A stretch of DNA of 64,000 nucleotides, taken from contig JBDRIV010000002.1 of the NCBI GenBank assembly GCA_043815505.1, positions 116,784-180,783 on the forward strand, given 5' to 3'. Of this stretch, positions 19,165 to 64,000 are shown one piece after another. The notes below the pieces were generated by a model, which saw only the letters and a program-made list of their open reading frames with translations, was not told where the DNA came from and searched no databases. Both the position numbers and the translations under genes were made by a program. Every line of letters begins with the position of its first letter. The first letter of the stretch is position 1. This DNA comes from a bacterium (GTDB taxonomy: Bacteria; Patescibacteriota; JABMPQ01; JBDRIV01).

Positions 19165-20211
19165 TTATAAAACTCTTTGGTACATATAGTCTGCCAACTC
19201 AACATAGAAGTCTTGGCTGTTTTTGGTAAAGTTTGATTTCTTAATAATCTCTCTGGCTTCACCTGTAATTTGGGCAATACTTGAAGTCATCTGTTTATCA
19301 ATATTTTTTGCCTTAGCCAAAGTTGTTACTTTGACCATTTTTTCACGTGAAACATTAGCTTGGCCAAAATCACTCATATCCTTTTTATCCAGTTCTGAAA
19401 ATAAAACTTTAACCAAGGGCGTTAATTTGCCTTCTTTAAAATCAGAGCCTACTGGTTTACCAAGAGTTTTTTCGTCACCAAAAAATCCTAACAGATCATC
19501 TTGCATTTGAAATGCTTCACCAATGAGAGTGGCATAACTGGCCAGGATTTCTAGGTTTGTTTTTTCGGTACGTGCCAAAATTGCTCCCGAAATTATGGGG
19601 CTAAGAGTTGTATAGCCAGTAGTTTTAAGTTTCACAATTGTTTCAGTGGGAACATTAGTTAAATTCTTTTCGTTTGAATAATGAATATCAATAAATTGAC
19701 CGATGCCGGTATCAAACAAACGATTTTGAATATAAGTTAAAGCCGGAACTTTTATTTCGTCTTCAAAATCACAATTTAAAATTACTGACATGGCCAGATG
19801 AGAAAGAAGGTCACCGGCCAGTAAGGCTACTTTGTAACCGTATTGCTTAGCTCTTTTTTCCTCGTAAACCACGTGAACTGTTTTTTCGCCGCGCCTTATT
19901 TCATCTAAATCAATTATATCGTCGTGAATTAAAAGGGCGGCGTGAGCCAGTTCTAAACCGGCGGCAAAATCTAAAATAGCTTTTTTATTTTCACCACCAA
20001 AAAATTCATAAGTGGCAATTAAAAGAGAGGCCCGAAAGCGTTTGCCGCCTCTGCTTACCAAATTGCAAGCTTCAGCAAACAAATCTTTCACATTTTCGTC
20101 ATAAGAATCATAGGTTTTTGAAGCTTCATTTATAATGCTGTTCAAATGGGAATTAACCAAATTCTGGTGTTTGGTTAAGGTTGTTTGAAAAATGTTTTTG
20201 CTACTCATCAT
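19165..20211 (-). CDS. polyprenyl (isoprenyl) diphosphate synthase
   Basis: First aspartate-rich motif LIHDDIIDLDEIRRG and second motif FQMQDDLLGFFGD. Start set at MMSSKN to remove the overlap with the divergent gene. Confidence 0.8.
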   Translation of the reverse strand: MMSSKNIFQTTLTKHQNLVNSHLNSIINEASKTYDSYDENVKDLFAEACNLVSRGGKRFRASLLIATYEFFGGENKKAILDFAAGLELAHAALLIHDDIIDLDEIRRGEKTVHVVYEEKRAKQYGYKVALLAGDLLSHLAMSVILNCDFEDEIKVPALTYIQNRLFDTGIGQFIDIHYSNEKNLTNVPTETIVKLKTTGYTTLSPIISGAILARTEKTNLEILASYATLIGEAFQMQDDLLGFFGDEKTLGKPVGSDFKEGKLTPLVKVLFSELDKKDMSDFGQANVSREKMVKVTTLAKAKNIDKQMTSSIAQITGEAREIIKKSNFTKNSQDFYVELADYMYQRVL

Positions 20212-38511: not shown

Positions 38512-40737
38512 TTACTTTTTATTTCGAGGGGAAAAGAATTTTTTCTTGTCTCTTTTAGGAAAATCGCGCTTGTTGTTATCACGCTTGTCCTGATTTTTAT
38601 TGAAGGAATCATTTCTCTCGCGCGGAGCACTATTACGCTCTGGTCGAGGCAGCATGGCGCGACGAGAAAGATTAATACGTTTTTGACTATCAATTTCAAT
38701 TACTTTTACAGTTATTTCGTCGCCAACTTGAACTTCATCCTCAACCTTATTAATGCGCTTATGAGCCATTTCCGAAATGTGAACTAAACCTTCAACTTCA
38801 GGCAGAATTTCTACCATAGCACCGAAATCGAAAATGCGAGTAACTTTACCGGTGAAAATTTCACCCGCCTCAATTTCACGAGTTAAGTTTTTAACAATTT
38901 CTACAGCTTTTGGCACATCAGCTTCGTGCGTTCCGGTAATCATCACTAAACCACTGTCTTCAATGTCTATATCAACACCAGTTTCAGCAATAATCTCGTT
39001 GATTTTCTTACCACCTGGTCCAATTACATCACGGATTTTATCGGGATTGATGGTGAGGGAAACAATTCTCGGAGCAAATTCAGATAAATCTTTGCGAGGT
39101 TTAGCAATGGCTTTTTCCATAACTGCTAGAATTTTCATTCGTCCAGCTTTGGCATCAGCAAATGTTTGCTTAACAATTTCGTCAGTTAGTCCTGAAGTTT
39201 TGGTGTCTAATTGAATGGCGGTAATACCATCTTTAGTACCGGCAATTTTGAAATCCATTCCACCTTCGTTGTCTTCTAAATCTTGCAGGTCAGTTAGAAT
39301 TTGGTATTTTCCTTCGGCGTTGGAAACGAGTCCCATCGCAACTCCAGCCACGTGTTTAGGAATATTAACGCCGGCATCCATTAAGGAAAGTGATGATCCA
39401 CAAACTGCAGCCATGGAAGATGAGCCATTTGATCCCATCACTTCTGTTACCAGTCTTATAGTATAAGGGAATTTTTCTTTTGGTGGAATTAAAGATTCCA
39501 AAGCTTTTTCTGCTAGCGAGCCATGACCAATGTCACGCCTGCTAGGTCCACGCATCGGTTTAACATCAGCCACAGAATAAGGAGGAAAATTGTAATGATG
39601 CATGTAGCGTTTTTTGTATTCTTCTTCCATCTCATCAATTATTTGTTCGTCTCCAGGAGAACCGAGTGTAGTGACGGTTAGAACTTGAGTTTCACCGCGC
39701 ATAAAATAACCAGTACCATGTGTGCGAGGTAAAATTCCCACCTCGGCAGTTAAAGGGCGAATCTCATCCATGGCACGACCACCAATTCTTTTTCCTTCAT
39801 TAAGAATCTTGTCACTTATCATTTGTTCAACCATTTCCAGCAAATATTGTTTAGCTAATACTGCTTTACTTTCGTCTTCAGGAAATTTTTCTTTGACAGT
39901 TTTTGCTACCTCATTGTTTAAGTCATAAACAAGATCCTTACGCTTAAGCTTAGTTTCTCCAAACAAAACTTCTTCAATCTTTTTGCCAGCCAGTTCAGAA
40001 ACTATGTTACAAACTTTTTCATCTTTAGCTGGTGCCGGAACATCCATTTTTTCTTTGCCAATTTCTTTTGTAACTTTGTCAAAGAAATCACACATTTCGC
40101 CTAAATATTTTTTAGAGTAATCGAAAGCTTCAAACATTCCTTCTTCCGAAACTTCCTTAGCTGCGGCTTCAACCATAATGACTTTATCCTTTGTTCCAGC
40201 TAAAACTAGGTCCAAATCACCTTCTGTTCTGTCTGAAAAATTGGGACAGAAAATCATAGTTCCGTCTTTTCTTCCTAGTCGCACAGCACCAAGGGGACCA
40301 TTAAATGGGACATCAGAAATCTGACAAGCTAGGGCGGCAGCTAAAAATCCGGGAACATCTGAATCGTTTTCACCATCAAAAGACAGAACAGTAACAATCA
40401 CTTGGAGATCGCGAGTTATATGTTGAGCAAATAAAGGTCTGAGAGCGCGGTCGATCATGCGTGCAGTTAATACTGCTTCGTCTGATGGGCGACCTTCACG
40501 TTTAATGAAACGTGAACCCTTAATTTTTCCGGCGGCGTACAATTTTTCTTCGTAATCAACCATAAGTGGAAAGTAGTTGGCACTTGTTTCATCACGACTC
40601 ATAACAACTGTAGCTAAAACTACTGTGTCACCAAGTCGGCACACAACTGATCCATTTGTTTGATTGGCAATTTTGCCAATTTCAAAAAAGAAGTTTTTAT
40701 CACCAACTTCCAAAGTGTAATTTTTTATTTCGTTCAT
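38512..40737 (-). CDS. pnp: polyribonucleotide nucleotidyltransferase (PNPase) with an Arg/Lys-rich C-terminal tail
   Basis: Two RNase PH domains, KH and S1 domains. After S1, a roughly 55-aa basic tail (RRAMLPRPERNSAPRERND...RDKKKFFSPRNKK). Confidence 0.9.
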   Translation of the reverse strand: MNEIKNYTLEVGDKNFFFEIGKIANQTNGSVVCRLGDTVVLATVVMSRDETSANYFPLMVDYEEKLYAAGKIKGSRFIKREGRPSDEAVLTARMIDRALRPLFAQHITRDLQVIVTVLSFDGENDSDVPGFLAAALACQISDVPFNGPLGAVRLGRKDGTMIFCPNFSDRTEGDLDLVLAGTKDKVIMVEAAAKEVSEEGMFEAFDYSKKYLGEMCDFFDKVTKEIGKEKMDVPAPAKDEKVCNIVSELAGKKIEEVLFGETKLKRKDLVYDLNNEVAKTVKEKFPEDESKAVLAKQYLLEMVEQMISDKILNEGKRIGGRAMDEIRPLTAEVGILPRTHGTGYFMRGETQVLTVTTLGSPGDEQIIDEMEEEYKKRYMHHYNFPPYSVADVKPMRGPSRRDIGHGSLAEKALESLIPPKEKFPYTIRLVTEVMGSNGSSSMAAVCGSSLSLMDAGVNIPKHVAGVAMGLVSNAEGKYQILTDLQDLEDNEGGMDFKIAGTKDGITAIQLDTKTSGLTDEIVKQTFADAKAGRMKILAVMEKAIAKPRKDLSEFAPRIVSLTINPDKIRDVIGPGGKKINEIIAETGVDIDIEDSGLVMITGTHEADVPKAVEIVKNLTREIEAGEIFTGKVTRIFDFGAMVEILPEVEGLVHISEMAHKRINKVEDEVQVGDEITVKVIEIDSQKRINLSRRAMLPRPERNSAPRERNDSFNKNQDKRDNNKRDFPKRDKKKFFSPRNKK

Positions 40738-40912
40738 AAATATGCTCCTTTACATAGGTGCATAGAACGTGAATTTCAGATATGAAGACTCAAACGAAGC
40801 GCGCTTGCTTAGATAAGTCTTTTATTATCTAACTTCCACATTTATATACACCAGCATTTAATAATTATAATGAACTTTTGTGTTTAGAAGTATAAATCAT
40901 TTATGTTAAGTT

Positions 40913-41025
40913 GGCAAGCCCCGCTCCAGTTTTTTAGAACTTAGATACTTATAGTTAAGTAATGCTATTTAGTATCAATATAGTTGTTGAAATTTTTAAG
41001 TTCAATAAAACTGGGGCGGGGCAAG
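40913..41025. repeat. about 113-bp inverted-repeat element, copy A
   Basis: GGCAAGCCCCGCTCCAGTTTT ... 73 nt AT-rich ... AAAACTGGGGCGGGGCAAG. Confidence 0.8.
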
Positions 41026-41107
41026 TCATTAGGGTTCATGTTTAGCCACACAATAATTTTGTTCAAAAAATAATCCCCAATCGATTATTTCCGATTGGGG
41101 ACACTGA

Positions 41108-41884
41108 CTAGAATCCTTCAAATATTGATGGAGCGAAAATTATCGTTACACCAATTACTTCTAGACTTGCGGGCTCATCAAGATACTCAAGATCGTATTC
41201 CTCTCTATAAAATGAGAGTCCGAATCCATATATTGGCTTGATTTGTATTTCTATGCGTTTACCAAATCCCGACCAGTTCTCCTTTTTTACTTCTTCCCAG
41301 CTAAGATATCGATCATGACCGGATCTGGCCGTGAAGCCGGTATATGGCCATCCATATTCGACTGATATCGATGATTTCCAGCACTTAAAAACAACAACAT
41401 CAAGTCCAATGTGTGGAATGGCATCAAAGAAGACTGGAGAGTCAAAGTAAAATTGAGTGAAGACGAAAGCTGCGTCAAATGCAGGTCGTGGATCATTATC
41501 CTGTTGTTGATAAGTGTATATTCCACTTCTAAAGTCATCATCGCGCATGGGGATTCTTAAATCTAGCCCGAGAGTTAAGCGAAGCCGCTCTGATCCATAC
41601 GATATGTCACCACCAGCCGTAGTTGCGCCAATGCGATAACTGTTACCGGCAGCTATATCAGTTGTTGTTTCTCCGTCAAAAAGCCAGTAATCGTCAGGGT
41701 GAGCGGGTGTTGTTTGGATTGTATCTCCAAGTTCGACATCGCAGATCATAAGATCAATAGAATATCTTAAGCTACCAGCAAAGAAAAGAAGCTTTTCCTC
41801 TTCTTTCGTTTCTTGACAAAAAGAAATTGCAGATGAGATAGTAAGAAAAATCAAAACTATAAAAAGAACACATTTTTGCCACAT
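41108..41884 (-). CDS. secreted beta-rich protein of unknown function
   Basis: Signal peptide MWQKCVLFIVLIFLTISSAISFC; Tyr/Gly/Asp-rich sequence with alternating hydrophobics; C-terminal ...SIFEGF. Confidence 0.5.
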   Translation of the reverse strand: MWQKCVLFIVLIFLTISSAISFCQETKEEEKLLFFAGSLRYSIDLMICDVELGDTIQTTPAHPDDYWLFDGETTTDIAAGNSYRIGATTAGGDISYGSERLRLTLGLDLRIPMRDDDFRSGIYTYQQQDNDPRPAFDAAFVFTQFYFDSPVFFDAIPHIGLDVVVFKCWKSSISVEYGWPYTGFTARSGHDRYLSWEEVKKENWSGFGKRIEIQIKPIYGFGLSFYREEYDLEYLDEPASLEVIGVTIIFAPSIFEGF

Positions 41885-41967
41885 CTTATTTCCTCCTTAA
41901 ATAAAAGTTGTTAGAGCAAAAAGACATATCAAATTACCAATAATGTTTGTTTTTGTCAAATAAAAAT

Positions 41968-42002
41968 CCCCAACTGCGTACTGCTTGCAGTTGGGGTTTT
42001 CG
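41968..42002. terminator. bidirectional-looking Rho-independent terminator
   Basis: CCCCAACTGC-GTACTGCTT-GCAGTTGGGG followed by TTTT, preceded by an A-run. Confidence 0.55.
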
Positions 42003-42875
42003 TTACGCAGCCGGTTGGCTGTGAACGAGAATTTTGCGGCCGAGTGAGCGCAGCCACTGAGGAATGAATTCACTCAAGCTTTTTCTGGTCAGAGGTTGAT
42101 TTAGTTCTTCCGGCGGTTTCGGCGGATTCACTAAATCCAGCATCTGCAAAAGTTCCCGTTTGATTTCCGGACCTTTCTCCAGATAATCAGCATAAGTTTG
42201 GCAACGGCTGATGATCAGAACCAGTTCGGCTAGAGAGTGCGAAGCAATCTCATTGCCGAAAAAGAGATCATTTTTGTCCACGCCGTCCGGTTCCCAGCGA
42301 ATTACATAGAGAGCTGTCCTCGCCATATCGGCAAAAACCACATCGCTCTCATTGCGAATTCCCTTGGGAAGAACGAAGCGAACAAATTTCCAGTTGGTAG
42401 CTGGTGGTCCGTAGATCTTACCTTCACCCTTGGAATCAACTGCCACACCGCCGAGAATATCTCGCATCATGGGATCATAACCGGGCAAATTAGGGGTTAC
42501 CTTCTCATCGCCGAGATGATAGTGAGGAGGTTGACCATCTTCGTAAAAAGCATGGAATTTTAATCTTTTACCCAGGCGTTGTAAAAGGCAAGCACTAAGC
42601 CAAGTTCCAGAACATACCAAAATCATAATACCTGTTAACAGTAGTCCGAACAGCACGTCCTGGTCAATGATTTTTTGCAAGTAACGGGCATAGTGATTAC
42701 CGCTTGTGATCAAAAAATACCCACTTCCCAAAGGTATTATTACCAACAGGGAAATGAGAAACAGGATAAGTGATCTTATAAGCCCGCTGTGATGCAGGGC
42801 TGGTAGGATCAGTTTGTGAACTTGCGCAACGATCGTGTCGTTGCAGTAAACACAGTTAGTTTTCTGTTGAGTCAT
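42003..42875 (-). CDS. membrane protein of unknown function with an N-terminal CxYC motif
   Basis: Start MTQQKTNCVYCND with a GGAGGA SD. 2-3 TM helices, then a roughly 180-aa soluble domain. GC clearly higher than neighbours. Confidence 0.5.
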   Translation of the reverse strand: MTQQKTNCVYCNDTIVAQVHKLILPALHHSGLIRSLILFLISLLVIIPLGSGYFLITSGNHYARYLQKIIDQDVLFGLLLTGIMILVCSGTWLSACLLQRLGKRLKFHAFYEDGQPPHYHLGDEKVTPNLPGYDPMMRDILGGVAVDSKGEGKIYGPPATNWKFVRFVLPKGIRNESDVVFADMARTALYVIRWEPDGVDKNDLFFGNEIASHSLAELVLIISRCQTYADYLEKGPEIKRELLQMLDLVNPPKPPEELNQPLTRKSLSEFIPQWLRSLGRKILVHSQPAA

Positions 42876-43188
42876 CGTTTTTCCTCCTTCATAAACGTGG
42901 GGGTTTATGATATAGGAAGATTTGTTCAGTAGTACAATATTATTGTACAACTGGGTATATAATCAACTCTGCCCTTATTTATGGGAAGTAGTTGTTATTT
43001 CAGATCATGGATTTTCAAGTGAGCAACTTAGAATATTATACTATATAAGCTGAAATGTCAAGTATTTGGAGCAAGAAAAAGAGCGGAAATCACGAGATTT
43101 CCGCCCCTGCTTAGTCAGTTGTTACTTTCTTGGTTTTTTGAAATTGGTGAATCGAACTTTGCCAGAAACACCTTTTCCTCCAGAATCT

Positions 43189-44499
43189 CTAGCTTTTTTT
43201 TGCGCCCTCCCCACCTTTTTTCAGTGCTTGATTAATGTCTTTAGGGGCCAGAATTTCTTCTTCTTTTTTATCGCAAAGATGAGAACCTCGGTTACCTGAC
43301 CTGATTTGATCCATGAGGTTGCCGGGCCTGGGAGGGCGACCGAGACAATGTTTTGAATCGCGCACGCCATCGATTTCGGACACAATAACAGGCCTTTGGG
43401 TTGGAACCTGCTTAGGTGGATCCAAAACGATATCAGATACAAGGTCTAGATCCTTACTTTCTTTCGGTCCAATCGAAAAGAGATCATCGCCCTCATCTTC
43501 TAATGATTCCAAAGCTGCATCAGCGAATTCCTCGTCCGCATCATTACCTGCTAAAACAACTTTAGCACCACTGAAATCAGGAACATCAGCGTTCACTGGC
43601 GATTCATCATCCACAGTAGCCAAATCGGCTTCGGCGAATTCATCTTCTGCGTCACTCGGAACATCCAGTTCAGCTACCGTCAAGGAATAGGAATTAATGT
43701 ATCTGAGTATTTCACTCATTATTTCCAGCATAGACTCATTGGGACTATTCTCAACTAGTCCATACAGATATTCATGACGAGGCCAATTTATCACCTGAGA
43801 AAAGTTTTCAAACAGTTTCATGATAATTAAAACCAGGGGAGAGAAGAAAGGGTAAATTAAACCAGCTTTTTTGTTATCCAATAAATGGATCGGGATAAGC
43901 CTAACATAGGATTCGAAAGTAGAATTTTCATTGGTTTTAATCTCAATGAATTCAGAATTAATAACCCAAGGGTTATTTAGAATGCCGGCGGTCCCAAACG
44001 ATTTGATGTGTATTGTTTTGTCACGAAGATCGAAAATAAATACTACACCAGCAGTCGCGTTTCGTGGTTTTCCTATTAGCTTTTTGGAAATACCTAGATC
44101 ATTATTTTTGAGAAGATGAAGCCTAGCTTGCAAATAGTCATTCTTATCTAAATAAACCATGAGTGATACATGATCGTTGTTTCTTACTTTCCGCATATAT
44201 TTTCTGTGTAACATTTTTGTGCAGTAAGCCAGGATTAGTGTAATGAAAACTGCGAGAAAAAGAAAGAGATTAAACCTTTCCAGGCTGACCACTTTCGACA
44301 GCAGACTCTGCACAAAGGCCACATTCACTGTGTTCATGAAAATAGCAATCGTAAGAGTACTTGTAAGCAGAAAGAAAACAATCAGAAGAGAAGAAATTAA
44401 AAACCAAAATTCTTTAAGAAAAGACCATCTCCTTACTTTTCCGAAAATAGGGAGAACCTTAGTGGACAAAACTTTCTTTGTGATTTGCTGATCAGTCAT
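43189..44499 (-). CDS. membrane protein of unknown function with a long acidic low-complexity C-terminal region
   Basis: Start MTDQQ with an AAGGAG SD; three TM helices; central globular region; D/E-rich tail (DVPSDAEDEFAEADLATVDDE...). Confidence 0.45.
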   Translation of the reverse strand: MTDQQITKKVLSTKVLPIFGKVRRWSFLKEFWFLISSLLIVFFLLTSTLTIAIFMNTVNVAFVQSLLSKVVSLERFNLFLFLAVFITLILAYCTKMLHRKYMRKVRNNDHVSLMVYLDKNDYLQARLHLLKNNDLGISKKLIGKPRNATAGVVFIFDLRDKTIHIKSFGTAGILNNPWVINSEFIEIKTNENSTFESYVRLIPIHLLDNKKAGLIYPFFSPLVLIIMKLFENFSQVINWPRHEYLYGLVENSPNESMLEIMSEILRYINSYSLTVAELDVPSDAEDEFAEADLATVDDESPVNADVPDFSGAKVVLAGNDADEEFADAALESLEDEGDDLFSIGPKESKDLDLVSDIVLDPPKQVPTQRPVIVSEIDGVRDSKHCLGRPPRPGNLMDQIRSGNRGSHLCDKKEEEILAPKDINQALKKGGEGAKKS

Positions 44500-44672
44500 A
44501 ACAATTCTCCTTATAGTGGTATTTACAAAATTGAATATGTGAAAGGGCAAATTGCCAGAATTAGCAACGGTTTATAATATCATTAATTATAGAATTGGCA
44601 AGTAGCAGTCTTTTTAAAAAAAAGAGAGTCAAAATAATCTAGACTCTCGTATATGTTTTGAAATAAGTGTCA

Positions 44673-45392
44673 TTAAATCCAAGCTCGATCTGAGTGAAAT
44701 CTTTGTCCGATAAAATCTGTCACTTCCTTCGAAGATCTACAGTTTGCGATAATATGTGGAATTTTTTCAGCTGAGAAAATGAATTTCTTACCTGTTCCTT
44801 TCAATTTTATCACAGCTAAAAGATTACTCACAAGACCTGATTCACAAAAACAGATATTGAGATATTCTGGAGGAATATTATTATTGACAAAACCACCAAG
44901 AACCTCCCAAATAGATGAAAAATATATGTAAGAAGAATTATCTGTGTCTATTTTGTGTCCAAGAATACAGCTATTTTTTTTTCTGTTATTGGCGGTACCG
45001 TCAAAAGCAATTATGACAGTCAACTGTTGGTCTGTAAATACAGTGTTGGGGTACTTCACGTCATTATTTTTTGCAGAACAGGGTGGCGTGCTATGAATAT
45101 GTGTGATTCCTCCATTATCGTTTTGTATATGCCCAATTGAATGAGTGAAGTTTCTCAAATAGTATTCACAAGTTAAGCAAAGAATTAAAATCCCGAAAAT
45201 GATAATTCCAGATGTTGTGGATGTGTAGGGTATGTTAGCAGTTTTAGCTAAGTAGAAAAAGAACCCAAGTACAATCACCCAAAGTATTCGCCGAATCAGA
45301 TTGGTACCAGATAAAGGTTTGAATTTTGTGATTCTTGAAATGAAGTTTGTACAACTGGAACAAATCGGATAGTCTTTTCCCGCTTTACGCAT
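44673..45392 (-). CDS. membrane protein of unknown function with an N-terminal CSSC motif
   Basis: MRKAGKDYPICSSCTNF with an AGGAGG SD, two TM helices, C-terminal soluble domain. Architecture parallels 42003..42875. Confidence 0.45.
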   Translation of the reverse strand: MRKAGKDYPICSSCTNFISRITKFKPLSGTNLIRRILWVIVLGFFFYLAKTANIPYTSTTSGIIIFGILILCLTCEYYLRNFTHSIGHIQNDNGGITHIHSTPPCSAKNNDVKYPNTVFTDQQLTVIIAFDGTANNRKKNSCILGHKIDTDNSSYIYFSSIWEVLGGFVNNNIPPEYLNICFCESGLVSNLLAVIKLKGTGKKFIFSAEKIPHIIANCRSSKEVTDFIGQRFHSDRAWI

Positions 45393-45510
45393 TTTGCTTC
45401 CTCCTTAATAAATTTTATAGAGTACGGTTTAATACTGGCAGAGTATCATAGATAAATAATTTGGCAAATAAAAATCCGCTACAAGTTCAGATAGCAGATT
45501 TTCTATTTTT

Positions 45511-46005
45511 TTATTTAAGTAAGAATTTTTTATTCTTTCCTAAATCCAGAAATTCGTCAGCTACATCCATCAATTTGGAAGAAGTTGATTTTTGGAAAGA
45601 GGCAACTTCAACTCGACAACCTTTGGCGTGACGCAAATGATGAACCAAATCAACGTAGTCGCCGTCACCAGAAGCGATTACAACGACATCACATTTTTCT
45701 GCAATCTCGATTGTGTCCATGGCCAGTCCAATATCCCAATCACCTTTTTTATTGCCACCATAAAAGATTTGAATGTCTTTCATTTTAACTTCGTAACCTT
45801 GATTAGAAAGTGCGCCGAAAAATGTTTGTTCTTCTGGTGCTTCGGCTTTGATAACGTAAGCAATTGCTCGAACCAATTTTCTTGGTCCCACAACTTCTTT
45901 TAATATTTCTTTAAAGTTAACTTTGGTTCCAAATAAATGTTTGGCGGAGTAGTACAAGTTTTGCACATCCACAAAAACACCAACGCGTTGGTCTTTAAAT
46001 TTCAT
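45511..46005 (-). CDS. NYN-domain (LabA-like) predicted ribonuclease
   Basis: VGVFVDVQNLYY...VVVIASGDGDYVDLV, typical of the NYN/LabA fold. Confidence 0.6.
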   Translation of the reverse strand: MKFKDQRVGVFVDVQNLYYSAKHLFGTKVNFKEILKEVVGPRKLVRAIAYVIKAEAPEEQTFFGALSNQGYEVKMKDIQIFYGGNKKGDWDIGLAMDTIEIAEKCDVVVIASGDGDYVDLVHHLRHAKGCRVEVASFQKSTSSKLMDVADEFLDLGKNKKFLLK

Positions 46006-46075
46006 ATCAGTAAATTAATAGTTAATTCAATCGGCCATAAGCCATAAGCCATTGGCCATTTGCAGGGCACGAGCC

Positions 46076-46381
46076 CTACACTTGTTTTATTTTTAGTTTT
46101 TTGGTGATGCTCAAATAGCGCTTTTCATCTTCTTTTTTTAGATGATTTAGTAACTTCACACGTTGTGCTACCATGCCGAGTAAACCTCGGCGAGAAGAGT
46201 GATCTTTTTTATGATCTTGCAAATGTTTTGTAAGCTCCTTAATTTCCTCAGTCAAAATTGCGACCTGTACCTCGGGGGATCCAGTGTCTTTGGCGTGAGT
46301 TTTATATTTCTTTATAAGATTTTCTTTCTTCTTTTGGCTAATCATTTTTATGGTTATTAAACATGTACGAGTATGATACAA
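46076..46381 (-). CDS. rpsO: 30S ribosomal protein S15
   Basis: [13 protein letters not shown]...L..H..D..SRRGLL.MV..R..LL.YL. Confidence 0.85.
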
Positions 46382-46462: not shown

Positions 46463-47404
46463 ATGGCTACGCAAAATTCATTAAAAGGGCTTATCCAAGA
46501 CTTCTTGGATTATTTAGAAGGGGAGAAAAACTGCTCTCCTTTAACAACCAGAAATTATCATTCTTATTTGACCGATTTTGCTAACTCTATGAAAGTTTCT
46601 CAGCCAGCCGAGATAACAGATAGTAAGTTGCGAGATTATCGAGTTGTTTTAAATAGAAGAAAAAATTCTAAGGGAGATTATTTAAAACATTCTACCAAGA
46701 ATTATTATTTAATTGCTCTTCGTTCCTTTCTGAAGTATTTAGCCAAGCGCGATATAAAAAGTCTAATGCCTGAAAAAATTGAGTTGGCCAAAGTGGCTGG
46801 ACGTGAGATAGATTTTTTGGAGCCAGAAGAACTCGCTCGTTTGCTTGATGCACCAGATGCAGGAACAATGCGTGGATTGCGTGACAAAGCAATTTTAGAA
46901 CTGCTGTTTTCCTCTGGTTTGCGTGTCAGTGAATTATGTTCACTTGATACTAAGAAAATAAATTTGAAAAAAGATGAATTTTCTATTCGCGGAAAAGGAG
47001 ATAAGTTGCGGGTCGTTTTTCTTTCTAACACCGCTAAGTACTGGTTGAAAAAATATAATGATGCCAGACAAGATGGTTTATCTCCACTATTCATAAGCTA
47101 TCCAAAAGGGAAAGCTAGTCTCGATGTTTCCGATCCAGAAAAAAGAAGATTAACCCCAAGGAGTATTCAAAGGTTAGTTCATAAATATGCTCTTATTGCT
47201 GGAATTACAACCAAGGTTACACCCCATGTTTTGCGTCATAGTTATGCCACAGATTTACTAATGGGTGGTGCTGATATTCGTTCGGTGCAGGCCATGCTTG
47301 GGCACGCTTCTATTACCACTACGCAAATGTATACGCACATTACTGACAAAAGATTACGCGAAGTTTATAAGAAGTTTCACGGGAAAACTAGAAGAGGCGA
47401 GTAG
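46463..47404 (+). CDS. tyrosine site-specific recombinase, XerC/XerD family
   Basis: N-terminal core-binding domain. Catalytic R (LRDKAILELLFSSGLRVSEL), the HVLRHSYATDLL box and LGHASITTTQMYTH with the Tyr nucleophile. Confidence 0.8.
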   Translation: MATQNSLKGLIQDFLDYLEGEKNCSPLTTRNYHSYLTDFANSMKVSQPAEITDSKLRDYRVVLNRRKNSKGDYLKHSTKNYYLIALRSFLKYLAKRDIKSLMPEKIELAKVAGREIDFLEPEELARLLDAPDAGTMRGLRDKAILELLFSSGLRVSELCSLDTKKINLKKDEFSIRGKGDKLRVVFLSNTAKYWLKKYNDARQDGLSPLFISYPKGKASLDVSDPEKRRLTPRSIQRLVHKYALIAGITTKVTPHVLRHSYATDLLMGGADIRSVQAMLGHASITTTQMYTHITDKRLREVYKKFHGKTRRGE

Positions 47405-47795: not shown

Positions 47796-47867
47796 GTCCC
47801 CATAGTTCAACGGATAGAACGAGAGCCTTCTAAGCTCTAGATGTAGGTTCGATTCCTACTGGGGATA
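47796..47867 (+). tRNA. tRNA-Arg (anticodon TCT)
   Basis: GTCCCCA acceptor, D-arm GTTC/GAAC, anticodon loop CTTCTAA, T-arm GTAGG-TTCGATT-CCTAC. Confidence 0.8.
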
Positions 47868-47946
47868 GGGATAATTATATGTAAGCAAAACTGTTTAGCT
47901 AAACCCTGTTGTAGACATTGATATAGTATTCTGATATGCTTTAAAC

Positions 47947-48411
47947 ATGAATGTAAAATGCAAGATTTGCTCAAAAGAGTTTTATGTAAAACCATCCCAT
48001 AAAAAAATGGGTTGGGGAAAGTTCTGTTCATTAAAATGTGCATATATTGCAAGAAGAAAAGGTAAGGAATTAGATTGCGCAGAATGTGGAAAGAGAATAT
48101 ACCGATCCCCGAAGCAACTTAAGAAGTCTAAGTCACAATTATATTTTTGTACAAAATCATGTCATCAGAAGTATAAAAATAAGTTTATGTCTGGCGAGAA
48201 TCATCCGCAGTGGAAGTACGGGAAATATTACTATCTTCCGCTAATGAAGAGAAAGAAGAAAATGATATGCATGAAATGTAATGAAAAAAATAAAAAAGTT
48301 TTGGTTGTTCATCATATAGATAGAAATAGAAAAAATAATGAATTGGAAAATCTGATTTGGTTATGTAGGAATTGTCATTATCTAGTTCATCAGTATAAAG
48401 AAAAGTTTTGA
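47947..48411 (+). CDS. HNH endonuclease with N-terminal Cys-rich zinc ribbons
   Basis: Four CxxC pairs in the N-terminal 100 aa; C-terminal HHIDRNRKNN...LCRNCH HNH motif. Confidence 0.65.
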   Translation: MNVKCKICSKEFYVKPSHKKMGWGKFCSLKCAYIARRKGKELDCAECGKRIYRSPKQLKKSKSQLYFCTKSCHQKYKNKFMSGENHPQWKYGKYYYLPLMKRKKKMICMKCNEKNKKVLVVHHIDRNRKNNELENLIWLCRNCHYLVHQYKEKF

Positions 48412-48418
48412 ACGATAT

Positions 48419-48490
48419 GGTGGCCATAGTTCAATGGTAGAACACTAGCTTGTGGCGCTAGCTACGAGAGTTCGATTCTCTCTGGTCACC
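48419..48490 (+). tRNA. tRNA-His (anticodon GTG) with encoded G-1
   Basis: G-1 plus GTGGCCA acceptor, anticodon loop TTGTGGC, discriminator C73. Confidence 0.8.
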
Positions 48491-48602
48491 CGGCAAAGAC
48501 ATCTTCGTAACAGAAGGTGTTTTTGTTTTGGATAAAAAAGGACCTGCGGACCGAGTTGGTCGCGCAGGCCTTGCCAAATTCATGTTGCATGTTGAGAAAG
48601 TA

Positions 48603-49133
48603 TCAATAATCAGAAGTGATAAAGAAACTAACCCATCCAATTGCAGCAATGATAAAGGATATCCACCACCAGAGCAGAATTCCAACCTCACTTGGAAACC
48701 AGACGATGTGAGCTGGTAGAGTAACCTCAGTACCAGACTTTCCTTCGTCAAGGACAACTTCCCTGATCTTCATCAGAGCATTGTCTCTTACGAGTTGGGA
48801 GACCGATTCTGGGTCCTCTACGATCCTTGCAAGAAGATCACTGACGGTTTCGTTGGCCTCATTGATCTTGCGATACCAGATGCCAACATCCGTGACCTTA
48901 AGTTTGTTGAAAAAGAAGGCCGAGTTGCCGCTGGTGAGTCCTTGTTCTTCCATTTTCTCGATAGCGGCTGAAAGAAATTCGTTGGCCATCTCGAGGTTTG
49001 GAGCATCGCCAGCGTTTTTGAGGTGGTCACCGATCTCACTGTGAAAATCGTACCACCAGCTGATGCTGCATACCCCGACGATAATCAGGGACACTGCACC
49101 GACGATTCCTAATGCAAGAAATAATCCTCTCAT
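48603..49133 (-). CDS. membrane protein, hypothetical (N- and C-terminal TM helices)
   Basis: ORF of 176 aa with TM helices at both ends; higher GC than the genome average. Confidence 0.45.
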   Translation of the reverse strand: MRGLFLALGIVGAVSLIIVGVCSISWWYDFHSEIGDHLKNAGDAPNLEMANEFLSAAIEKMEEQGLTSGNSAFFFNKLKVTDVGIWYRKINEANETVSDLLARIVEDPESVSQLVRDNALMKIREVVLDEGKSGTEVTLPAHIVWFPSEVGILLWWWISFIIAAIGWVSFFITSDY

Positions 49134-49519
49134 CGTACTTCTCCTTTTGAAGGAGTGGATTGTCTATTGAAGACAAGCCACTCGGGTTTGAAAACATTGC
49201 TTGCCTACATTCGCATTTGAATCCGAACACAATGAACAAGACTTTGTAGACTACAAAACTTCCCCATATTTGTCAATAATTCTCTCTTGACAGAGTTATT
49301 AATTCCTGCTACATTACTTAGTCCAGTTTTGCTATACTAAAAGTGTAAATGTTTAAAGGTTAGAACTTTTACAAATTCAAAGTAAACACTTTGACATAAA
49401 CATGAACAAACAATATTTGTTTCAATTAAGGAGGTGAAGATTGTTGACATCTTGGTTTTATGAAGTTCTCATTCTTTGAAATCTGGCCCGCCTAGGGCTT
49501 TACAAAAAGGAGACGAAAA

Positions 49520-52009
49520 ATGAAAAGCTGTAATGCCATTCTGTGTCTCGTGGTGGTTTTTCTGCTGTCTGTTATGACAGCGGATGCCGCAGTTTTGCGG
49601 GTCCCTCAAAGCTATCCGACCATCCAGGTTGCTGTTGATGCCTCCGTGGATGGCGACACGGTGCTGGTGGACGAAGGCACCTACACTGGTGTTGGTAATC
49701 GTGATATCTATATCGAAAGGAAAAAGATAACTGTAAAGTCGGTGTCTGGACCCACTAAATGTATTATCAACTGCGAGAATAAAGGTCGTGCCTTCATGAT
49801 CTATCTCGAAGGTGATGACTCTCCAACTATCAATGGGTTTACCATTGTAAATGCATCCAAGTTTGTTGGTGGTTTCTATGATGATGGCGGTGGAATCTAT
49901 TGCCACTATGTCAATCCAACCATCAAAAACTGCATTATTATGAATTGCAACGGTGGTAATGGCGGTGGAATTTATCTCGATAATTCCAGTCCAGTCATTC
50001 AAGATTGTGTGATCGCGAACTGTGAAGCTACAAGATTTGGCGCTGGAATCTCTGGTCACAGCGAATGCTCTCCAAAAATTTTGGATTGTATCATTGACAA
50101 TAACAAAACGAACGATGGTGGCGCTGGAATTGCTATTGGTTATAATGGAAAGCCAGAAATAACCAATTGTATTATTACCAACAATCGTTCTAAAGATTCA
50201 TATGGTGGTGGTATCTCAATTTATCAAGATGCTGTTGGAAAAATTCAAAAATGTACAATCATTGGGAATTACTCTTACTCTGGAGGTGGAGGAGTTTACG
50301 TTGGTGGTTGTGGTATTGGTGAAAACCAATTAATCGAGAATTCCATTGTATGGGGAAATAGTGCAGTATCTCAAGGTGACAACATCTTTACCTATAATGA
50401 AGAAGACCTCATCGTCAAATTCTCTTGCATCGAAGGTGGTTGGGCTGGTCAGGGTAATATTAGTCAGAATCCGCAGTTTCGAGATGGTCCTCCCGACAAT
50501 GCATGGAAAAACACTCACTGGCCGTCAGGTTTGAATTCTGACGCCTACTATCTGAAACAAATCGCTGCTGGTGATGCAGTAGATAGTCCCTGTGTAGATG
50601 CCGGTAATCCCGGCACAACTGTTACAGGAACTACGCGCAACGATCAGGTTATCGATTCTGGCACGCCCGATATGGGTGCTCATTACAGAGAATTTTTCAT
50701 CGGATACAATCCGACTAACATGATTTTCACAGCTTCAGAAGGGGAAATCCCCGCGCCACAGTATGTGGAAATTTGGCCGGACGGTGATGGTTCAACTGGT
50801 ATGAACTGGACAGTTAGCAAATATGTTCCATGGATTTCTCTTGATCCGCTTTCTGGAACTTCAACAGGAGAAGTTGATCAGGTGGCAGTGAATATCGACA
50901 CTAGCAACATGAGTAGAGGAACCTACTCAGGCAAGATTTATGTTAATGCCAATGATGCTTTTTGGCCTACAGAAAGTATCCTGATTACAGTTAGCATCGG
51001 TGAAACGGTCACGGGCCCAAAGCTCGTTGTGGGGCCTGGCCCCGCTTACGGTAATGATTCTGTTGTTCGAGTTTTTCCTCCGCAGCAGAATGCAACCTAT
51101 GAATTGGAGTTTGCCGCTTACGGCGTGCCCCATTATGGGGTCAACGTTACGGTAGGGAATTTCGGTGGTGGCGACATGATCGTTACCGGCGCTGGCCCTG
51201 GGGCTGTATTTGGTCCTCATGTTAGAGGATTCTTGCCCAACGGTATTCAACTACCTGAGTTTTCCTTTCTCGCTTACGGAACCAACAAATGGGGTGTAAA
51301 CGTCGCTTGTGGTAATCTGGATGATGACGAAGCAGATGAGATTATTACTGGCGCTGGCCCAGGAGAAATTTTTGGCCCGCACGTGCGGGCGTGGAACTAT
51401 AATGGTTCTACTATTTCTTCCATAGCGAAGGTAAGCTATTTCGCCTATAAAACCCCTAAATGGGGAGTCAACGTAGCGGCTGGTGATGTGGATGGTGATG
51501 GTTACGACGAAATCATTACCGGCGCAGGACCAGGTGCGGTATACGGCCCTCACGTCCGGGGTTGGGATGTGGACTCTGATTCCGCGGTAGCCATACCAGG
51601 AATCAACTTCCTTGCTTATGGAACCAATAAGTTTGGTGTTAATGTGACAGTCGGAGATGTCGACGGCGACGGCTACGACGAAATCATTACCGGCGCTGGT
51701 CCAGGATCTGTGTTTGGAGCTCATGTGCGTGGTTGGAACTACGACGGCGCGCAAATCACAGAACTTCCTAACTTTTCCTTCTTTGCTTGGTCGCCTAACG
51801 ATATACGTTATGGCGCCAAGGTTTATGCCGGTGCTGATTTGGACGGTGACGGCAAAAATGAACTGATCGTTGGCGGTGGTCCTGATCCGAATATGAATAC
51901 CGAGATCAAAGCCTACCGCTATAATGGAAGTATCGTTGAATGGTTCTCCATCTACGAAACTTTCGTCGGATATACGAAGGGAACCAGCATCGCTGCTGGT
52001 AACTTCTAA
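49520..52009 (+). CDS. secreted right-handed beta-helix (pectate-lyase-like) protein with C-terminal FG-GAP/VCBS-like beta-propeller repeats
   Basis: Signal peptide. PbH1-like repeats (NCIIMNCNGGNGGGIY, CVIANCEATRFGAGIS). At least five repeats of GVNV..GD.DGDGYDEIITGAGPG..FGPHVRGW with DxDxDG Ca-binding-like loops. Strong AAGGAG SD. GC about 10 points above surroundings. Confidence 0.75.
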   Translation: MKSCNAILCLVVVFLLSVMTADAAVLRVPQSYPTIQVAVDASVDGDTVLVDEGTYTGVGNRDIYIERKKITVKSVSGPTKCIINCENKGRAFMIYLEGDDSPTINGFTIVNASKFVGGFYDDGGGIYCHYVNPTIKNCIIMNCNGGNGGGIYLDNSSPVIQDCVIANCEATRFGAGISGHSECSPKILDCIIDNNKTNDGGAGIAIGYNGKPEITNCIITNNRSKDSYGGGISIYQDAVGKIQKCTIIGNYSYSGGGGVYVGGCGIGENQLIENSIVWGNSAVSQGDNIFTYNEEDLIVKFSCIEGGWAGQGNISQNPQFRDGPPDNAWKNTHWPSGLNSDAYYLKQIAAGDAVDSPCVDAGNPGTTVTGTTRNDQVIDSGTPDMGAHYREFFIGYNPTNMIFTASEGEIPAPQYVEIWPDGDGSTGMNWTVSKYVPWISLDPLSGTSTGEVDQVAVNIDTSNMSRGTYSGKIYVNANDAFWPTESILITVSIGETVTGPKLVVGPGPAYGNDSVVRVFPPQQNATYELEFAAYGVPHYGVNVTVGNFGGGDMIVTGAGPGAVFGPHVRGFLPNGIQLPEFSFLAYGTNKWGVNVACGNLDDDEADEIITGAGPGEIFGPHVRAWNYNGSTISSIAKVSYFAYKTPKWGVNVAAGDVDGDGYDEIITGAGPGAVYGPHVRGWDVDSDSAVAIPGINFLAYGTNKFGVNVTVGDVDGDGYDEIITGAGPGSVFGAHVRGWNYDGAQITELPNFSFFAWSPNDIRYGAKVYAGADLDGDGKNELIVGGGPDPNMNTEIKAYRYNGSIVEWFSIYETFVGYTKGTSIAAGNF

Positions 52010-53158: not shown

Positions 53159-53560
53159 TTAAGCTGGTTGATCCAGTTTATTTTTTTCGATTTCGTGATG
53201 CAGGTTTTCAGCCAGGGCGTTAACAACACTGCGAACATTGCTAGTGGTGATGTCACCTTTGTAGTGAACGCTCATAGGTCTTTTATACTCACCTTCTCTG
53301 AAAAAAGGAAAAGCAACACTCAACCTATTCTTTTCTCCAAATCTGAAAATGAGTTGGGTGCAGAAATGACTACGAACGTCAATTTTGGAGCTAACATTAC
53401 ATTCATAAGATTCTATCGGTCTGGCAATTCTTTTAAACAAAACAGGGTCATGTTTGTAGAGTCTATTAAACTCAGCTTCTAGAATTCTCAGTTCATGGGG
53501 ATGCTTTGGTGCGCTCCAAAATTGGAATTTGTCCATAAGATTATACGGAGTTCTACCCAT
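53159..53560 (-). CDS. hypothetical protein (133 aa)
   Basis: AGGAGGAACGATA SD directly upstream; globular composition; higher-GC patch. Confidence 0.45.
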   Translation of the reverse strand: MGRTPYNLMDKFQFWSAPKHPHELRILEAEFNRLYKHDPVLFKRIARPIESYECNVSSKIDVRSHFCTQLIFRFGEKNRLSVAFPFFREGEYKRPMSVHYKGDITTSNVRSVVNALAENLHHEIEKNKLDQPA

Positions 53561-55978: not shown

Positions 55979-56479
55979 ATGCTTTGCATTATTTCTGACC
56001 AGGGATATCCTAAAGATGGTAATGTGATGGCTAGGGTTGAACTTTATCTTGATAATCCTTTTGAAGGTGGAATTATGATTTTAGGCAAGGACAGTCAAGA
56101 AAAAGAATTCAAACCAAAACATGAGCCTGGAGGATCATATGCTCTTCCATCGGGAAAGCAATTTCGTGTACCCGTAGGAAATCATTCGGTTTTGTATTTT
56201 CCTTTCGAGTTGAATTGTAGTATCGGAACCCAGGAAATTAAAAAGTATGAACATATTGATGACGAATTTTTTCGTCATTTTGACCTGGTTCTGATGGACG
56301 AATTCATGGAACGAATCGAACTCAACGATTCGGAAATCGAAAGGTTTTTCAAGAAGATGGTTATTTGGGGGAGGCTTGAATTGATTGGGGTACTGGCAAC
56401 TCATTTTTGGGGTGAGGTTTATCAGGAGAGAACTCCCGTAGTTGAAGAGTTCTTGAACCGTTTTAGAAAACAAGAATAA
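55979..56479 (+). CDS. hypothetical protein (166 aa)
   Basis: ORF with an AGGAGGGAAAAG SD region; no recognisable motifs. Confidence 0.45.
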   Translation: MLCIISDQGYPKDGNVMARVELYLDNPFEGGIMILGKDSQEKEFKPKHEPGGSYALPSGKQFRVPVGNHSVLYFPFELNCSIGTQEIKKYEHIDDEFFRHFDLVLMDEFMERIELNDSEIERFFKKMVIWGRLELIGVLATHFWGEVYQERTPVVEEFLNRFRKQE

Positions 56480-63715: not shown

Positions 63716-63824
63716 CCCTTGCCCCGCCCAAGTTACTTTAATTGATATAATCGCTTGTTTAAGCATAAATAGTTCTTCTATGGTTTTAATCTATCAATAA
63801 AATTAAACTGGAGCGGGGCTTGCC
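63716..63824. repeat. inverted-repeat element, copy C (opposite orientation to copy A)
   Basis: CTTGCCCCGCCCAAGTT ... 70 nt AT-rich ... AAACTGGAGCGGGGCTTGCC. Confidence 0.8.
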
Positions 63825-64000
63825 ATAGTTGTTTTTTATTGTTAGACTTAAAAAAATTTATTATAAATTTTTTTGCCTGCCTGTTGGCAGACAGGCCTAA
63901 TTTCGGGGGTTACAACCGAAAACGGCTCTTTTAAAAAAGAAATTATGCGCATGAGAGGATGCGCTTTAATTTTGCCTAAATATCAAGCGGAAAAGGAGAA

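Follow-up and report, generated by a model that had tools for sequence, protein, structure and literature searches.

Why should rpsO and pnp, the genes of S15, a ribosomal protein, and of polynucleotide phosphorylase (PNPase), stand 5338 nt apart in the genome of an uncultivated bacterium of the Patescibacteriota, and what are the genes that part them? The question was raised by a first-pass annotation of a 64,000-nt stretch of contig JBDRIV010000002.1 (assembly GCA_043815505.1, forward-strand positions 116,784 to 180,783), hereafter the window, in whose own numbering all positions are given. Five genes were counted there in the gap (40738-46075), on the same strand as rpsO and pnp, and were taken together as a candidate for an undescribed envelope-associated or defence module acquired by insertion. 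All five open reading frames (ORFs) were recovered on the minus strand at unchanged positions (Table 1), and are named here P1 to P4, counted from the pnp side, and NYN, which adjoins rpsO. The gap is in our judgement probably composed of two layers of different age, a resident NYN gene and a 4.8 kb islet of four genes (~40738-45510), which would be specific to the lineage and inserted in the NYN-pnp spacer, normally ~160 nt in relatives.

The separation itself is real and exceptional, since S15 mostly lies ~150-700 nt upstream of pnp in the 80 genomes that were fetched with pnp (at least 70 of the 80 within 150-700 nt), and the distance of 5.3 kb announced by the first-pass annotation is thereby borne out. 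The window shares with the canonical rpsO-pnp operon of the E. coli and B. subtilis type the position of S15 upstream of PNPase on the same strand, together with a hairpin behind rpsO and a structured stretch in front of pnp; in E. coli, the hairpin in front of pnp serves RNase III autoregulation. It differs from that operon in the NYN gene between rpsO and pnp, found in the window and in a subgroup of Patescibacteria, and in a further 4.8 kb with five terminators between NYN and pnp, found in the window. The separation is the sum of these two differences, a clade-wide NYN gene and a lineage-specific islet of four genes.

The identification of NYN as a predicted ribonuclease has stood, as its match to PF01936 scores 122.9 bits (cut-off 24.2) over model positions 1-144 of 145, and an alignment with PDB 2QIP, the protein VPA0982 of Vibrio parahaemolyticus, function unknown, shows identical acidic active-site motifs (VDvqN, KGDWDvG, SGDGD). 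By this full-domain match and these motifs it is a member of the LabA-like NYN proteins and a predicted ribonuclease, which differs from the known ones in being set between rpsO and pnp and in having its nearest relatives on archaeal contigs. The order S15-NYN-pnp recurs in 38 Patescibacteria loci, namely the five closest genomes (L001-L005) and 33 metagenome contigs, and tblastn found no homologue of P1-P4 in any of these 38; NYN is therefore a conserved member of the cluster and not part of the cargo. The metagenome contigs were drawn from a scan with the NYN protein that returned 80 loci, in which gene order was read by tblastn. The order is NYN-S15-pnp in two further loci (L152, L153), and a divergent XerC-type recombinase usually lies upstream of rpsO in the metagenome loci with S15-NYN-pnp. 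A divergent XerC gene followed on the other strand by rpsO, NYN and pnp is a conserved cluster across a broad group of Patescibacteria, and no description of the rpsO-NYN-pnp arrangement in Patescibacteria was found in the searchable literature.

The properties of the gene agree with its residence: codon usage is native (z-score +0.22, as compared with +0.19 for pnp), there is no Shine-Dalgarno sequence, as with rpsO and most window genes, and a terminator stands directly after it. The first layer would be this LabA-like gene, long-standing between rpsO and pnp. Because the order is conserved in the 38 loci, and in the variant form in two more, a predicted endonuclease is tied to S15 and PNPase, and the cluster is of interest as a link between such an enzyme, with its archaeal nearest relatives, and the main 3' exonuclease.

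The spacer between NYN and pnp, with a median of 162 nt in the 38 loci against 4773 nt in the window, is itself a variable site. Unrelated cargo of 582-1788 nt, different in content each time, occupies it in five of the 38: a HicA toxin (5.3e-14) with a DUF7387 (HicB-like) partner in L144 (10896-11331), a receiver domain in L089, a 407-aa coiled-coil orphan in L124 and small orphan ORFs in L095 and L127. Since these five loci hold differing cargo, the spacer can be regarded as a recurrent landing site for accessory genes, of which the window carries the largest load among the spacers compared. Similar to the integration hot spots between core genes where toxin-antitoxin and defence genes gather, this is a single site with cargo that differs between lineages, the HicA/HicB-like pair included, and the cargo of the window is compositionally atypical; unlike at those hot spots, no recombinase, tRNA or repeat marks the NYN-pnp site, and the window cargo consists of four orphan envelope genes and not of recognisable defence or toxin genes. 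We hold it to be likely that the four-gene insert is an islet of accessory genes at a hot spot of insertion, and this would be an ordinary phenomenon in an unusual place, with strain-specific accessory genes set within a conserved operon of a bacterium not yet in culture.

P1-P4, filed at NCBI as hypothetical proteins of an unclassified metagenome-assembled genome (MAG) and encoded on a 567 kb contig, have no match in Pfam, NCBIfam, PHROGs or PADLOC, and no genes like them were found in 162 related loci, apart from two P1 homologues that were fetched separately. Their translation signals set them apart. The sequence AAGGAGG precedes P1, P2 and P4, and AAGGAG precedes P3, each suitably spaced from the start codon, so that AAGGAG(G) is present in all four insert genes against 7 of the 37 other window genes (hypergeometric p ~0.003, by our own arithmetic); the strong Shine-Dalgarno sequence first ascribed to all five genes thus holds for P1-P4 and fails for NYN. 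The anti-Shine-Dalgarno motif is reported to be missing in about half of Parcubacteria (PMC9297842), and in a genome whose native genes mostly do without a Shine-Dalgarno sequence, its presence could be a simple marker of foreign genes. Codon usage, scored leave-one-out on synonymous codons, places the four genes at ranks 2, 5, 6 and 9 among the 46 genes, counted from the least native. The G+C content at third codon positions (GC3) is 0.46 in P2 and 0.37 in P3 compared with 0.20-0.34 elsewhere in the window. P2, for which a GC content above its flanks had been claimed and is confirmed, reaches 0.46 overall against a window mean of 0.365, and its codon-usage z-score is -2.5.

Absent from every relative examined at a conserved site, and atypical in GC3, Shine-Dalgarno sequences and codons, P1-P4 resemble a genomic island in these respects, and acquisition by insertion, first proposed for the entire block, holds for them and not for NYN. 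Judging by their composition, P1-P4 most likely came in by horizontal transfer, in one event or perhaps several, which need not be recent, and their donors would be users of Shine-Dalgarno sequences with somewhat higher GC.

Several observations weigh against the two-layer reading. GC3 is near-native in P1 (0.32) and P4 (0.30), and by tetranucleotide composition the insert as a whole is no outlier (rank 22 of 119 windows), so that the acquisition may be old, or some of these genes may be native and fast-evolving. No integrase or transposase ORF was found in 40738-45510, and no flanking direct repeats or att-like duplication at the insert edges, which leaves the insert without the other usual mark of an island, an integrase or transposase of its own together with flanking direct repeats. 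The closest relatives by PNPase among species-representative genomes, Patescibacteria of the Buchananbacteria, Magasanikbacteria and others, are only 50-53% identical; the term lineage-specific is hence drawn from distant comparisons, the nearest at ~50% PNPase identity, by which the insertion is not datable. The role suggested below for P1, as for P2-P4, is read from topology only.

The ancestry of NYN also weighs on that side. NYN genes on archaeal contigs (L083-L087, L090, L094, L111 and others were compared) share 66-72% identity with the window NYN, against only 51-64% for the genes in the operon context, and the neighbours of the former are of archaeal type (FEN-1, Trm5/TYW2, archaeal-type PheRS alpha, family-B DNA polymerase (PolB)). 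A neighbour-joining tree places the window NYN within the archaeal group, which also includes the NYN-S15-pnp variants L152 and L153, and apart from the main operon clade of the candidate phyla radiation (CPR). As the tree was built from 166 columns with midpoint rooting, it is to be taken as a lead. Because the gene groups with archaeal NYN genes, its history at the site is not simply vertical, and the grouping suggests exchange of the NYN family between archaea and Patescibacteria. The synteny argument, which assigns NYN to the cluster and keeps it out of the islet, is left unchanged by this archaeal affinity.

Edge repeats were also considered as att sites and rejected, since those present are short, terminator-like and no more numerous than chance allows (2 observed, 0.8 expected, with 15 of 100 shuffles reaching 2).

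Whether P1-P4 belong together functionally is a separate matter. One explanation leaves NYN aside and regards P1-P4 as cooperating parts of one envelope system that arrived by acquisition of a single block, such as an exported barrel joined by three membrane proteins in transport, host attack or exclusion. Much is consistent with it, since all four are envelope proteins in contiguous genes of one strand with non-native codon usage throughout, the ribosome-binding contexts of P1, P2 and P4 are near-identical (family D4), and P2, P3 and P4 share a topology in which a cytoplasmic N-terminus leads into a hairpin of two transmembrane (TM) helices. The segments are predicted at residues 31-49 and 74-92 in P2, 37-55 and 76-94 in P3, and 36-54 and 61-79 in P4. 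All three N-termini are short and positively charged, and the positive-inside rule places the C-domains in the cytoplasm. The matching architecture first described for P2 and P4 is confirmed as to the N-terminal CxxC motif, the two TM helices and the C-domain, but it is a likeness of topology and not of sequence. P3, described as a protein of three TM helices with a long acidic tail, has the tail (D/E-rich at ~270-360, with 34 D/E in residues 241-360) and two strong TM segments, whereas its third hydrophobic stretch (212-230) is weak. Cysteines lie at positions 8, 11, 88 and 96 of P2 and at 11 and 14 of P4, which has a second CxxC (72, 75) at the cytoplasmic end of TM2; in both proteins, the N-terminal CxxC and the Cys pair at that end of TM2 could possibly form a four-Cys metal site.

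The arrangement of signals speaks against such a system. A stem-loop with a U-run (-10.8 to -19.8 kcal/mol) follows each of NYN, P4, P3, P2 and P1, including the terminator that had been noticed between P2 and P1, and a sigma-70-like site lies ahead of each of P4, P3 and P2, while for P1 inspection by eye gave a candidate promoter, TTGACA followed by a weak -10. With a promoter-like site and a terminator for each, P1-P4 would be separate transcription units and not an operon, that is, four independent monocistronic cassettes of promoter-like site, strong Shine-Dalgarno sequence, ORF and intrinsic terminator. In addition, the GC3 range of 0.30-0.46 suggests mixed origins, P2, P3 and P4 have no detectable homology to each other, and the P1 homologues in two other loci (L081, L082) have no P2-P4-like neighbours. 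We consider the cooperating system unlikely on these grounds. The possibility that P2, P3 and P4 are paralogues was rejected (BLASTP E >= 0.08, shuffle z <= 2.1).

The same signals bear on the flanking genes. The five terminators would cut pnp off from read-through out of rpsO and NYN, and since they and 4.8 kb of DNA part NYN from pnp, co-transcription of rpsO with pnp is unlikely in the window; pnp now stands behind a promoter-like site of its own, the -35 of which falls within the arm of a hairpin element of 110 nt. The leader of P2, ~150 nt long, holds downstream of its consensus-like promoter a near-perfect palindrome with TGTAC half-sites, possibly an operator for a dimeric regulator.

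P1 was described at first as a signal-peptide protein with a C-terminal F, and both features are present. It shows what an outer-membrane protein (OMP) would show, namely a signal peptide, a closed antiparallel barrel and a C-terminal aromatic residue, but sequence comparison does not place it in an OMP family, as there is no Pfam or NCBIfam match and the family profile found none among PDB sequences. The resemblance to small outer-membrane beta-barrels (NspA, OmpW, the OmpA/OprF N-domain, PagL) is one of fold class only, and P1 as a bona fide outer-membrane protein was rejected on that account. CPR bacteria have been described as monoderm (PMC8871954), an outer membrane is not expected in the hosts, and this, together with a homologue on an archaeal contig, argues against OMP membership. 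The two homologues, 39% and 32% identical, are found at L081 (10001-10762) and L082 (28-819), and the family shares the motifs QTTPxHPDD, GETTT, FVFTQ and PYxGFxxRSGHDR and an invariant terminal Phe. The archaeal contig (L081, 28.6 kb) is recognised by Alba, S17e, tRNA-intron endonuclease and TFIIE, and the P1 homologue on it carries a signal that resembles a lipobox and ends in Cys. By these likenesses, P1 and its relatives are a predicted family of exported barrel proteins common to a CPR bacterium and an archaeon, and possibly worth specialist attention.

L081 is DPANN-like with ~30% GC, and its P1 homologue stands between two aminoacyl-tRNA synthetase genes and is slightly GC-richer than its flanks. 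The second homologue (L082) lies on a 1.3 kb fragment.

A bolder proposal would make P1 the founder of a family of OMP-like barrels that probable episymbionts without an outer membrane, the Patescibacterium and the DPANN-like archaeon, export and insert into, or bind to, the envelope of their host cells, with the three orphan 2-TM/CxxC proteins as lineage-specific partners in host contact; separately, the conserved cluster would single out NYN as the endoribonuclease partner of PNPase that these reduced genomes otherwise miss, exchanged with archaea. We regard this proposal as a long shot. Under the two-layer reading, which we prefer, P2-P4 would be inner-membrane proteins whose N-terminus and C-domain, on either side of a 2-TM hairpin, both lie in the cytoplasm, P1 would be an exported, possibly lipidated beta-barrel, and all four would act as strain-specific accessory proteins of the envelope or surface of an episymbiont, for instance in host contact or the exclusion of phages or competitors, and not together with NYN. 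A defence or host-interaction role of P1-P4 is possible.

It may further be asked whether P2-P4 are functional genes at all, and not ORFs newly arisen de novo, pseudogenes in decay or artefacts of annotation within a spacer that has expanded. All three are complete singletons in the largest protein sets (P2 and P4 matched themselves only among 5.8 billion protein clusters, and P3 itself only when 1.84 billion representatives were searched in full with phmmer), P3 has no sequence relatives in PDB, the single-sequence AlphaFold2 model of P2 is of very low confidence (predicted local distance difference test 42) and unusable for a fold search, and P4 has an unusual codon pattern with G+C lower at the first than at the second position (GC1 < GC2). 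However, ORFs of 239-436 codons are far beyond chance at 35-46% GC (for P2 a probability of ~1e-7 by our own estimate), each has a canonical Shine-Dalgarno sequence at the correct spacing, a promoter-like site, a terminator and a clean 2-TM hairpin with positive-inside charges, and in P2 and P3 GC1 exceeds GC2, as is normal for coding sequence. Nonfunctional ORFs are for these reasons quite improbable.

Slightly less probable still is that the insert is the remnant of a prophage, integrative element or transposon that has lost its mobility genes. Its insertion into a conserved operon and its atypical codon usage would suit such an origin, and so would a tyrosine recombinase 0.5 kb from one edge and, at the other edge, the hairpin element with inverted arms, which has a second copy in the window. 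The recombinase, however, is a conserved XerC/D neighbour of rpsO and not an island integrase, as it occupies the same divergent position beside rpsO with 53-60% identity in more than 20 related loci; XerC as the integrase of an island was rejected for adjoining rpsO in relatives too. Phage families gave a best PHROG E-value of 0.011 over 35 residues, thus none below 0.01, and IMG/VR holds no relatives of P1-P4. Within the four-gene insert, neither PADLOC, PHROGs, IMG/VR nor the ORF scan disclosed a defence, phage or mobility signature, and the absence of an inner integrase or transposase and of flanking direct repeats has been given above.

The hairpin element stands at one edge only, and no target-site duplication is visible at the ends of either copy. 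Copy A, whose place next to pnp had been noted correctly, measures ~110 nt and has GC-rich arms of 20-33 nt around an AT-rich loop. Copy B, 23 kb away, has identical arms (CTTGCCCCGCCC.AGTT ... AAACTGGAGCGGGGCTTGCCA) and an unrelated loop, and is oriented to its downstream gene as copy A is to pnp. Its arm is followed by TTGCCA-17-TAGACT facing that gene, and in both copies the arm's TTGCCA would provide the -35 of a promoter-like site ahead of the downstream gene. The element has no Rfam family (at permissive settings nothing but a plant miRNA hairpin model came up in the region, below threshold and on the element itself), and no copies were found in the 162 related loci. In a comparison with repeats of the MITE or REP type, which come in multiple copies with terminal inverted repeats and target-site duplications, the window offered the two copies with their identical arms and no visible duplication. 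It could be a terminator or insulator combined with a promoter, a protein-binding site or a small mobile repeat.

The reading of the first-pass annotation, in which all five genes form one acquired defence or envelope module with NYN as the effector and the Cys-motif membrane proteins as sensors or anchors, is very improbable and largely refuted by synteny. It draws on the adjacency of the genes on one strand, on weak PADLOC matches of NYN (PDLC01154 at 6.8e-10 and HEC-09 at 7.9e-07; 36.8 and 26.9 bits), and on the toxin-antitoxin pair that the hot spot holds in L144. Against these stand the 38 loci with NYN at the same position and no P1-P4, the difference of NYN from P1-P4 in codon usage and Shine-Dalgarno sequence, and the terminator and separate promoter-like site between NYN and P4. 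P1-P4 have no PADLOC match at E <= 1, and the combination is found nowhere else in the collections searched. Judged by PADLOC-DB 2.0, a defence system should have at least two adjacent genes matching one system, while here only the weak single-gene matches of NYN were obtained; its components should co-occur as a unit elsewhere, while NYN occurs without P1-P4 in the 38 loci and P2-P4 have no homologues. The five genes are therefore not one block, and NYN with the paired Cys-motif membrane proteins is a juxtaposition and not a system, because NYN is resident and a terminator separates it from P4. Of the envelope or defence module first envisaged, what remains is four envelope-type proteins of unknown function in predicted separate transcription units, and the NYN nuclease should not be counted within a new defence system.

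A mis-joining of foreign DNA in the metagenome assembly, which the origin from a MAG contig and the heterogeneous composition could suggest, is scarcely credible, for both flanks continue the operon in the right order and orientation with the NYN end and the pnp start at the edges, two independent chimeric joins would be needed to restore this arrangement, and the hairpin element at the pnp edge has its second copy in native context.

Table 1. Features of the rpsO-pnp region and the second hairpin element, in window positions.
Feature	Positions	Strand	Evidence and remarks
XerC/D-type tyrosine recombinase	46463..47404	+	Pfam Phage_integrase 1.4e-40; divergent from rpsO
rpsO (ribosomal protein S15)	46076..46345	-	PF00312 1.8e-31, TIGR00952 1.5e-32; upstream flank
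NYN (LabA-like), predicted ribonuclease	45511..46005	-	PF01936 1.9e-35, PDB 2QIP 1.1e-25; resident, outside insert
Hairpin + U-run terminator directly after NYN	45466..45503	-	fold -14.2 kcal/mol, z = -4.5; upstream edge of insert
P4	44673..45392	-	239 aa, MFH1508692.1; CSSC motif, predicted 2-TM hairpin and cytoplasmic C-domain; singleton
Hairpin + U8 terminator after P4	44612..44643	-	read from sequence; -10.8 kcal/mol, z = -2.6
Promoter-like site for P3 (TTGCCA-16-TATTAT, extended TG)	44574..44601	-	consensus scan, 10/12 matches
P3	43189..44499	-	436 aa, MFH1508691.1; predicted 2-TM hairpin, cytoplasmic domain, acidic disordered tail; singleton
Intrinsic terminator after P3	43079..43108	-	terminator scan; -19.8 kcal/mol, z = -5.5
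Promoter-like site for P2 (TTGACA-17-TAATAT)	43033..43061	-	consensus scan, 10/12 matches
Near-perfect palindrome (CAGTAGTACAATA/TATTGTACAACTG)	42927..42953		inverted repeat, 92% complementary; P2 5' leader
P2	42003..42875	-	290 aa, MFH1508690.1; CVYC motif, predicted 2-TM hairpin and cytoplasmic C-domain; singleton
Intrinsic terminator after P2, bidirectional hairpin	41968..41996	-	terminator scan; -18.9 kcal/mol, z = -5.6
P1	41108..41884	-	258 aa, MFH1508689.1; predicted exported, possibly lipid-anchored, beta-barrel-like protein
Intrinsic terminator after P1	41073..41102	-	terminator scan; -18.6 kcal/mol, z = -4.1
Inverted-repeat (hairpin) element copy A	40911..41030	-	arms 40918-40950 and 40990-41022, 82% complementary; -39.5 kcal/mol, z = -6.9
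Promoter-like site for pnp (TTGCCA-17-TATACT)	40889..40917	-	consensus scan, 10/12 matches; -35 within inverted-repeat arm
pnp (polynucleotide phosphorylase)	38512..40737	-	Pfam RNase_PH, RNase_PH_C, PNPase, KH_1, S1; downstream flank of insert
Inverted-repeat (hairpin) element copy B	63718..63825	+	pattern match, 1 mismatch vs 0 expected by chance

Elsewhere in the window, a second compositionally odd stretch lies beyond XerC at 47796-52009 and has the highest tetranucleotide deviation in the window. It comprises tRNA-Arg, an HNH/TRASH zinc-finger endonuclease (47947-48411), tRNA-His, an orphan at 48603-49133 (GC3 0.51) and an 829-aa beta-helix/FG-GAP surface protein at 49520-52009. About three quarters of the window genes have no Shine-Dalgarno sequence, and those that carry one tend to raised GC3, examples being 48603-49133, 49520-52009, 53159-53560, 55979-56479 and the four insert genes.

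A perfect 16-bp palindrome, TGTTTCACGTGAAACA, is present in at least 8 copies within 12253-13160 and 19323-19654, most of them inside the very AT-rich ORF 11895-13331 (O-antigen-ligase Wzy_C domain), where they are read in two different reading frames. Giant surface proteins are typical of CPR genomes, and the 2319-aa protein encoded at 3778-10737, with SdrD_B, DUF11 and CarboxypepD_reg repeats, is to be counted among them.

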